The notes under the pieces are model-generated. The model saw nothing but the letters and a program-made list of their open reading frames with translations. It had not been told where the DNA came from and did not search any database. DNA of 12,663 nt from a virus (lineage: Duplodnaviria > Heunggongvirae > Uroviricota > Caudoviricetes), in the IMG/VR virus record IMGVR_UViG_2740892369_000024, positions 1 to 12,663 of that record. One strand, given 5' to 3'. Position numbers and translations under genes: made by a program. Shown piece by piece: positions 2,287-2,591 of the stretch; within the stretch, counting starts at the first letter, position 1, and each line of letters begins with the position of its first letter.

Positions 2287-2591
2287 TTTATTCACAGGTG
2301 AGGTAGAGTGCGTGCGCCGGACACGGGTGAGCATCCGGCACTGACAGTTTACTGAAAGGATATTTCCCTGAAAAGTCAGACCATAACGCGAAAGCGCACG
2401 GCGAGGTAGCTGGTTCATAGATAGCCTGTCGTTAAATTTTCGTCGACCGTGCGCTTCCGGTTGTGGCAATCCGCGAAATGGCGCGGCGGTAAGTATGGCG
2501 GGGTTATTCCTTCCCCAGTTGAGGACACCGGGTTGTCAGGTTGACCATACGCTTAAGTGACAACCCCGCTGCAACGCCCTCTGTTATCAAT

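Follow-up and report, generated by a model that had tools for sequence, protein, structure and literature searches.

Evidence for a portable structured RNA domain within the leader of the DicF small RNA precursor

The locus and its non-coding spacer

DicF was among the first bacterial small RNAs (sRNAs) to be described and sits in Escherichia coli K-12. A dicF locus was analyzed here in a window of 12,663 nucleotides (nt), positions 1 to 12,663 of the virus record IMGVR_UViG_2740892369_000024. By sequence match, this 12.7-kb window agrees at 100% identity with a prophage of E. coli 97-3250, and it holds the early-left (pL-type), repressor-controlled operon of a Qin/Tritos-type lambdoid prophage. 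The gene order, the same in the window and in the source strain, is repressor, ydfA/B/C, an open reading frame (ORF) of 124 amino acids (aa), spacer, DicF, dicB, DUF1482, exonuclease, xis and int (Table 1). The subject of this report is the non-coding spacer between the 124-aa ORF and DicF. A 116-nt segment within it, designated the core, appears from its covariation to be an autonomous conserved RNA domain, and it is the body of the 190-nt species of DicF.

The same spacer is present in the Qin prophage of K-12 and in the complete phage Tritos. The K-12 spacer aligned over the full length with only a few differences, and genomes of the K-12 lineage match the spacer at 97-98%. K-12 Qin and phage Tritos lack the 124-aa ORF, which is here inserted between ydfC and the spacer.

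Table 1. Positions of genes, RNA elements and helices in the window (bp, base pairs; stem P1 is a helix of the core and is distinct from phage P1)
Feature	Position	Strand	Remarks
LexA-family repressor	310-1083		
ydfA, ydfB and ydfC homologues	between repressor and 124-aa ORF		
124-aa ORF	1912-2286	+	PHROG 6937, function unknown, E 6e-78
Non-coding spacer	2287-2591	+	Exactly fills the gap between the 124-aa ORF and DicF
5' third of spacer, with the 6-nt hairpin and other short hairpins	2287-2380	+	No sign of structural constraint
Long imperfect hairpin, about 25 bp, -37 kcal/mol	2381-2466	+	Probable RNase III substrate, from folding
Inferred RNase III cut, 5' end of 190-nt DicF	2455-2460	+	190 nt back from the DicF 3' end/U-tract (2644-2649)
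Conserved structured RNA core, 116 nt	2460-2575	+	Stem P1 closes a junction with the arms P0, Pf-Pb and Pc; loop-loop pseudoknot Pa
Closing stem P1	2460-2467 / 2568-2575	+	GUUGUGGC pairs with GCUGCAAC
P0 hairpin, CCGCG-AAAUGG-CGCGG	2471-2475 / 2482-2486 (2471-2486)	+	Compatible with the data, unproven, dispensable
Pf, CGGU / ACCG	2487-2490 / 2527-2530	+	Outer pair U-A in 73 sequences, C-G in 5, U.G in 1
Pa, 6-bp loop-loop pseudoknot, GUAUGG / CCAUAC	2493-2498 / 2545-2550	+	3' strand in the Pc loop; 99.4% paired
Pb hairpin, CGGGG ... CCCC(A)G	2499-2503 / 2513-2518 (2499-2518)	+	Hypervariable arm, 3 compensatory pairs
Pc hairpin, GUUGUCA / UGACAAC	2532-2538 / 2558-2564 (2532-2564)	+	Almost invariant 19-nt loop GGUUGACCAUACGCUUAAG
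AU-rich linker	2576-2591	+	Runs to the RNase E cut (2591/2592), placed by K-12 homology
DicF sRNA with intrinsic terminator and U-tract	2592-2650	+	Exchangeable tail; Rfam RF00039 at 2593-2644, 76.7 bits
dicB	2819-3007		
DUF1482 gene, then exonuclease (3288-5759), xis, int	3' of dicB		

A sequence-only reading of the window had described the spacer as a GC-rich stretch with nested inverted repeats and no credible ORF, consistent with a folded precursor cut by nucleases and perhaps with a second, unannotated RNA element. The spacer is indeed richer in GC than its surroundings, with a fraction of 0.54-0.55 in 2301-2600 against 0.31-0.43 upstream and 0.38-0.47 downstream. The two inverted repeats, GCCGGA (2316-2321)/TCCGGC (2334-2339) and AAGCGCACGG (2392-2401)/CCGTGCGCTT (2447-2456), are exact, but they are consecutive rather than nested. 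The 10-nt repeat, which a repeat finder extends to 13 nt at 92% (2389-2401/2447-2459), is above chance: a perfect arm of at least 10 nt occurred in 1% of 300 dinucleotide shuffles of 2287-2591. The 6-nt repeat alone is not significant, as a single repeat of this length was present in 99% of the shuffles. Taken together, arm pairs of at least 6 nt number 17 in the spacer versus 5.9 +/- 2.9 in the shuffles, none of which (0/300) reached 17. Folding of the whole region was modestly better than that of shuffled sequences (z -2.2 on the + strand, -3.8 on the - strand).

No credible ORF was found, the longest being no more than 65 aa. The single database match is a 31-aa ORF (2449-2544, + strand) that matches PHROG 8854, a family of unknown function, and it fails a frame test. 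The spacing between the core's two invariant blocks falls into the three residues modulo 3 in 24, 40 and 15 of 79 members, and the first stop codon is scattered. Since the spacing takes all three residues and the stops are scattered, no reading frame can be conserved, and the PHROG 8854 coding gene was rejected. PHROG 8854 and the many "hypothetical protein" calls over the RNA core are probably spurious gene calls.

The 5' third of the spacer (2287-2380) is conserved in K-12 and many other prophages and is shared independently of the remaining spacer, and thus the spacer is a mosaic. The 6-nt hairpin hardly varies, and the variation in this segment is too small for a test of pairing.

The conserved core

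The suggestion of a second RNA element was borne out, since covariation supports a domain at 2460-2575. In total, 79 distinct versions of the core were collected from pattern scans of viral contigs, BLAST searches of plasmids and targeted fetches, and a structure model drawn from reading the alignments was then tested by pair counting. The final model has 35 pairs, and 95.9% of its 2759 cells are paired, versus 30-56% when the partners are slid by 1-3 columns. Compensatory (both-side) changes are seen in 13 pairs and 58 cells, with a covariation score of 0.136 vs 0.087, and not one of 500 shuffles of the final alignment reached any of five structure measures. The paired segments are therefore conserved across homologues, the check by which the sequence-only reading could have failed. 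The covariance model R1 scores 154 bits at 2460-2575, the only copy in the window.

The helices differ in the kind of evidence they show. The closing stem P1 is 93.5% paired vs 88.4% in shuffles (0/500), and its pairing is kept through the variants CCACAAC, CUGCAAC, CUACAAC, UCACAAC and CCACAAU, with a change of the inner pair from C-G to U-A. Pb carries numerous independent strand swaps (CGGGG/CCCCG, CUGGG/CCCAG, CAGGUG/CACCUG, CAGGGG/CUCCUG, CGAGG/CCUCG and CUGG/CCAG), and its loop varies in length by 1-6 nt. Pc has 4 compensatory pairs. A U-A pair is replaced by C-G in 9 sequences, a change found in the phage-P1-type copies, and an A-U pair occurs in L253, and in the L268 lineage Pc reads UGAUCA/UGAUCG, with two adjacent pairs swapped. 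The pseudoknot Pa, in which one pair is U-A in 71 sequences, C-G in 4 and U.G in 4, was absent from the covariance model used for aligning and is also picked by RNAalifold. The 5' strand of Pf may have an alternative partner at 2551-2553, which would extend Pa by 3 bp. P0 is 96.9% paired with zero compensatory changes and is absent from the lineage of L268, L271 and L272.

These three loci (L268 at 377-556, L271 and L272) are chimeric cores in P1-like plasmids of E. fergusonii, E. coli and Shigella dysenteriae. Besides lacking P0 and carrying the swapped Pc pairs, they combine a lambdoid-type closing stem lengthened to 8-11 bp with a terminator tail of the phage P1 type.

The strongest sequence conservation lies in unpaired loops, GGCGGUAAGUAUGG and CAGGUUGACCAUACGC.

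Other pairings were tried and rejected. A closing stem GCGGCGG/CCGCUGC and a helix GCGGGGUU/AACCCCGC were no better than shuffles (385/500 and 308/500, respectively). A nested, RNAalifold-like model without Pc has a sole genuine compensatory pair, which is shared with Pa, and its other compensatory pair falls in the non-homologous flank of phage P1. Minimum free energy (MFE) folding of the phage P1 version gave a z of -0.9.

It is very improbable that the segment has no RNA function and owes its conservation to recent descent or recombination, to a DNA site or to a small protein gene (PHROG 8854). Such a reading would fit a shallow family confined to elements of Escherichia, Shigella, Salmonella and Klebsiella, with balanced counts of G.U and A.C cells and one ORF that matches a PHROG. 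Against it, the flanks and the Pb loop are hypervariable or mosaic while the core is retained, phage P1 and the lambdoids share little beyond this stretch, and none of the 500 shuffles and none of the slid controls attains the 13 compensatory pairs. Sequences without homology have re-formed the upstream hairpin and extended stem P1, and the small protein lacks a frame that could be conserved.

Processing of the precursor and exchange of the sRNA tail

Later work cites Faubladier 1990 as having reportedly described processing of the K-12 DicF precursor by RNase III as well as RNase E. In K-12, the 190-nt DicF species takes its 5' end from an RNase III cut and the 53-nt form from an RNase E cut (Ragunathan 2023, PMC10448788), and the RNase E dependence of the DicF 5' end is found in a further report (PMC5069750). 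The 190-nt species accumulates on RNase E inactivation, vanishes without RNase III and persists in the stationary phase (PMC10448788). The polycistronic RNA starts at dicBp; the terminated ydfABC-dicF RNA is prominent, and read-through RNA is seen only upon RNase E inactivation (PMC10448788). A 72-nt form of DicF arises from an RNase III cut in the read-through RNA (PMC5069750, PMC9438474). The idea of a folded precursor cut by nucleases is thus correct but already known, as the processing was published for the near-identical K-12 Qin spacer (PMC10448788). The precursor and its processing are the known dicBF system, and the new part is a portable structured domain within the sRNA precursor leader.

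The 10-nt repeat AAGCGCACGG/CCGTGCGCTT forms the core of the long hairpin at 2381-2466, at whose base CCAUAAC (2381-2387) pairs with GUUGUGG (2460-2466). Among 47 distinct upstream variants, 46 have an MFE fold that is a long hairpin with the 3' base strand GUUGUG(G). The L018-type upstream hairpin is of unrelated sequence and keeps the same long-hairpin fold. The RNase III cut that yields the 190-nt species would lie at the foot of the 3' arm of the hairpin, a few nt from the 5' edge of the core, at a position good to some 5 nt. According to the K-12 dicF annotation, 2592 is the first position of the 53-nt form, and the RNase E cut placed by K-12 homology is 16 nt past the 3' edge of the core.

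Two further observations concern this hairpin. It is flanked by the direct repeats CGCGAAAGCGCACGGCG/CGCGAAATGGCGCGGCG (2387-2403 and 2472-2488), and at locus L015 it is lost precisely between them, with the core and a DicF-type tail kept, a natural deletion variant. In addition, a candidate long-range duplex (2437-2479 x 2656-2697, -31 kcal/mol) brackets the core and DicF. It uses CGUGCGCU (2448-2455) with AGCGCACG (2683-2690), the latter an 8-mer identical to the upstream arm (2393-2400). This duplex might account for the 3' RNase III cut behind the 72-nt form, but its register is mismatched with the 5' cut.

Sub-segments of the spacer are shared differently among phages in BLAST comparisons, and the block at about 2470-2570 is common even to phages P1 and P7 and to an "Actinobacillus" phage. 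Phage P1 and the lambdoids share essentially only this stretch of about 100 nt, with mosaic flanks. The 306-nt spacer matches 4316 of 5426 complete E. coli genomes (about 80%), at up to 8 places per genome, and 64 phage records. The core segment matches 510 plasmids, nearly all of them non-mobilizable P1-like phage-plasmids of about 90-100 kb, hosted by Escherichia (coli, albertii, fergusonii, marmotae), Salmonella, Klebsiella and Shigella. The species breadth is under-sampled: a pattern scan of genome contigs with only 15 specified bases gave matches that were nearly all due to chance, only the E. albertii locus L140 being real.

The covariance model finds one match per locus in 81 loci and a single one in all of the Tritos genome. 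In 61 of 61 distinct downstream contexts, stem P1 is trailed at 26-83 nt (median 62) by a terminator-type hairpin and its U-run. The tails themselves are diverse, with 42 different ones in at least eight seed/hairpin classes among the 61 contexts, and Rfam calls DicF in only one of 13 loci chosen to sample the non-canonical tail types. The core is thus what stays constant in a portable module, and the sRNA is what can be exchanged.

In phage P1, the core lies about 40 nt 3' of the C1-controlled Pban promoters, under an annotated "dicF-like region"; its own terminator comes next, ahead of tRNA genes, tciABC and ban. The unit of leader, core, short tail and terminator measures about 185 nt and, as a primary transcript, would roughly equal the processed 190-nt DicF in size. 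DicF is not called by Rfam in the tails of phage P1 or of phage vB_Apl-pPE4. The latter was deposited as an Actinobacillus phage yet carries dicA, ydaT, kil and exoVIII genes of the E. coli type; between its core and kil (L003 2620-2790) it has two tandem DicF-like terminator sRNAs with a different seed, which are not DicF by Rfam. At two other loci (L246 5046-5234 and L101 1171-1359), the core and its sRNA are followed within about 300-400 nt on the same strand by Rfam isrK and a C4 antisense RNA (P1/P7 immI-type), so several regulatory RNAs are clustered in one early operon there.

The layout of conserved pseudoknotted domain, variable linker, intrinsic terminator and genes is the classic one of a riboswitch, and in phage P1 it begins 40 nt after a promoter. 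The core might accordingly be read as an aptamer with the terminator as its expression platform. By inspection, however, there is no conserved, mutually exclusive pairing between core and terminator, and between the closure of stem P1 and the U-tract there are 26-83 nt. The linker varies, and the terminator stems (GGCGG.., GGUGG.., GCCCA..) are wholly unlike one another while the core shows no change to match. In most lambdoids the element is about 1 kb into the operon. A riboswitch is hard to credit on these grounds.

It is somewhat less improbable, and still far from likely, that the core is a functional RNA in itself. As such it would bind a protein or ligand, or serve as a cloverleaf-like (tRNA-like) decoy or as a handle for processing; it would work in trans or draw in a host factor, with the sRNA tail as a separate passenger or targeting arm. 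Conservation that peaks in unpaired loops, a closed multi-helix junction with a tertiary contact, the retention of the core with unrelated tails in unrelated phages and its place just ahead of tRNA genes in the same phage P1 operon would all suit such an RNA. Cleavage by RNase E would also release a core fragment of about 135 nt. A stable core fragment is unreported, although the published probes were specific for DicF (PMC10448788), and the core was never seen without a downstream terminator sRNA in the 61 contexts, which favours a relationship in cis. ARAGORN found 0 tRNA or transfer-messenger RNA (tmRNA) genes, and in 2100-2900 Rfam gave no tRNA or tmRNA match at E up to 10. No family of Rfam 15 lies over 2287-2591; at E up to 10, the matches across 2100-2900 were only DicF, a sub-threshold STnc100 3' of DicF and a noise-level ftsZ-DE.

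The STnc100 match (RF02076) covers 2642-2851 on the + strand, from the DicF terminator to the start of dicB, with 34.2 bits vs a gathering threshold of 47 and an E of 1.3e-5. The same match recurs in K-12 (L004 2433-2642), upstream of kil in pPE4 (L003 2766-2950) and upstream of tciA in phage P1 (L001 3842-3961), and the stretch has the look of a 5' leader conserved ahead of division-inhibitor genes. At about 7967-10524, just past int and the attachment site, the 97-3250 annotation of the identical region lists type III secretion effector genes: espM2 on the minus strand, a DUF1076 gene and espW.

Proposed function of the core and comparison with known systems

The best overall explanation, held with about as much belief as doubt, is that the spacer is a non-coding DicF precursor leader carrying a mobile structured domain. 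The preferred mechanism, which is tentative, is that the core acts in cis as a structured 5' platform of a modular RNA of about 190 nt. It starts from the strand GUUGUGG, which has two retained partners: upstream, the CAYAAC with which it forms the foot of the RNase III hairpin, and downstream, the CNRCAAC of stem P1. The retention of both supports a three-strand switch. In such a switch, GUUGUGG would pair first at the base of the RNase III hairpin, and cleavage at about 2455-2460 would free it to re-pair with CUGCAAC and close stem P1. The closed stem would seal the new 5'-monophosphate end in a compact fold, and this fold would govern how stable the 190-nt species is and how fast RNase E frees the short sRNA. 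The RNase E cut in the AU-rich linker at 2591/2592, placed by K-12 homology, then gives the 53-nt DicF.

Several points weigh against this explanation. The family is shallow: columns average 87% identity, and the covariance model has an effective sequence number of 1.57. Many of the compensatory cells descend from few events. The alignments A4 and A5 were built with a covariance model that contains the nested helices. The wobble counts are balanced (29 G.U vs 30 A.C cells), so the strand is not identifiable from wobbles; the + strand was assigned because of the K-12 190-nt RNA and the phage P1 promoter annotation. Pa and Pc may form together or alternately, and an extended Pa may take the place of Pf. 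The role of the core as a platform and in stability is one that we infer. A 116-nt pseudoknotted junction with near-invariant loops seems over-elaborate for protection of a 5' end and hints at a specific partner, such as RNA polymerase, a protein or a ligand. Finally, copies of the phage P1 type and the L018 type have no RNase III hairpin or a different one, and L015 has deleted it, so the three-strand switch is not the whole story.

A partner of this kind is central to the main rival proposal, itself unlikely, in which the core is a processive antitermination RNA, a functional analogue and not a homologue of put in phage HK022. The nascent RNA would modify RNA polymerase to read through the sRNA terminator and express dicB, exonuclease, xis and int, or the tRNAs, tciABC and ban in phage P1. 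The layout of early repressor-controlled promoter, core, intrinsic terminator and genes needed on induction is constant. Tritos has Q and no annotated N-type antiterminator, with exoVIII, xis and int beyond the DicF terminator, and pPE4 has its two tandem terminator sRNAs between core and kil. The variable distance from core to terminator (26-83 nt) fits action at a distance, the invariant loops suggest a macromolecular partner, and two adjacent hairpins of about 80 nt resemble the two-stem layout of put. However, a covariance-model search of the HK022 immunity region, run with filters off and E up to 10, found nothing at putL or putR, and homology to put was rejected. The words GCGCGGCGG and ACCAUGCG are common to the core and put, but their order is permuted. 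The core is single-copy in each genome and is missing from the pR operon, even though Tritos has a strong terminator there, upstream of Q; put is present in both early operons. In K-12, moreover, the terminated RNA is prominent and read-through appears only with RNase E inactive (PMC10448788), and leaky termination may suffice.

In broader terms, the core may belong to a new class of cis-regulatory phage RNAs whose partner is a host machine, a proposal that is possible and open to considerable doubt. The machine would most plausibly be RNA polymerase, with the core as a put-independent processive antiterminator of N-less lambdoids and of the phage P1 ban operon, or else a tRNA-handling or defence factor. 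If true, one module would both make a toxic sRNA and gate the downstream early genes.

The core gives content to 137 nt, most of the 190-nt DicF, that were previously regarded as anonymous precursor. Its helices are concrete, mutable targets for asking why the 190-nt DicF exists and is stable. The core bears on the expression of dicB, xis and int beyond the DicF terminator in N-less phages, and on the role of the "dicF-like region" that heads the ban operon of phage P1. The alignment is a seed for a new RNA family. No earlier account of the core was found in the literature searched, which did not cover the early DicF papers (Faubladier 1990, Faubladier and Bouche 1994) and the phage P1 genome paper, where priority is possible.

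The closest known system is the DicF precursor of K-12 dicBF. It is the same locus type with near-identical sequence, a pL-like operon under a CI/DicA-type repressor, and it has the same 190-nt RNase III product, 53-nt RNase E product and intrinsic-terminator 3' end, the processing being known for K-12. The element in the window shares its position between ydfABC-type ORFs and DicF and has a double-stranded substrate for RNase III where the 190-nt species begins. It differs in the extra 124-aa ORF between ydfC and the spacer. The literature searched treats the spacer merely as a precursor with mapped cuts; the closed domain, its occurrence in P1-like phages and the non-DicF tails are absent there.

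The put sites (putL, putR) of HK022, an N-less lambdoid, act in cis and, like the core, are structured RNAs that a phage without N transcribes early, from a repressor-controlled promoter and upstream of terminators. They suppress termination via the zinc-binding domain of the RNA polymerase beta' subunit and need no protein factors. The two adjacent hairpins of the core are comparable to put in total size (two stems, about 70 nt). There is no detectable similarity in sequence or structure between core and put, however, and the core occurs in one copy where put occurs in two, has in addition a closing stem and a pseudoknot, and is always tightly trailed by one terminator-ended sRNA.

The sRNAs derived from 3' untranslated regions or from within operons (MicL, CpxQ, SroC) resemble DicF in their release by RNase E from a longer mRNA beside a structured RNA and in the terminator hairpin that forms the sRNA 3' end. 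They use simple, gene-specific stem-loops, whereas the present element is a 116-nt multi-helix portable domain with many tails and an extra RNase III step. Terminator-type riboswitch leaders share the conserved pseudoknotted domain with invariant unpaired nucleotides, the variable linker and the intrinsic terminator. The core differs from them in having no conserved antiterminator pairing and no known ligand, and in its location, often deep inside an operon.

tRNA-like modules and the precursor of the phage P1 C4 RNA show a cloverleaf-like three-arm junction with a closing stem, and they too are phage early-operon RNAs matured by host nucleases. ARAGORN and the Rfam tRNA and C4 models are negative for the core, there is no evidence of RNase P, and the spacings of the junction and the sizes of the arms set the core apart from both.

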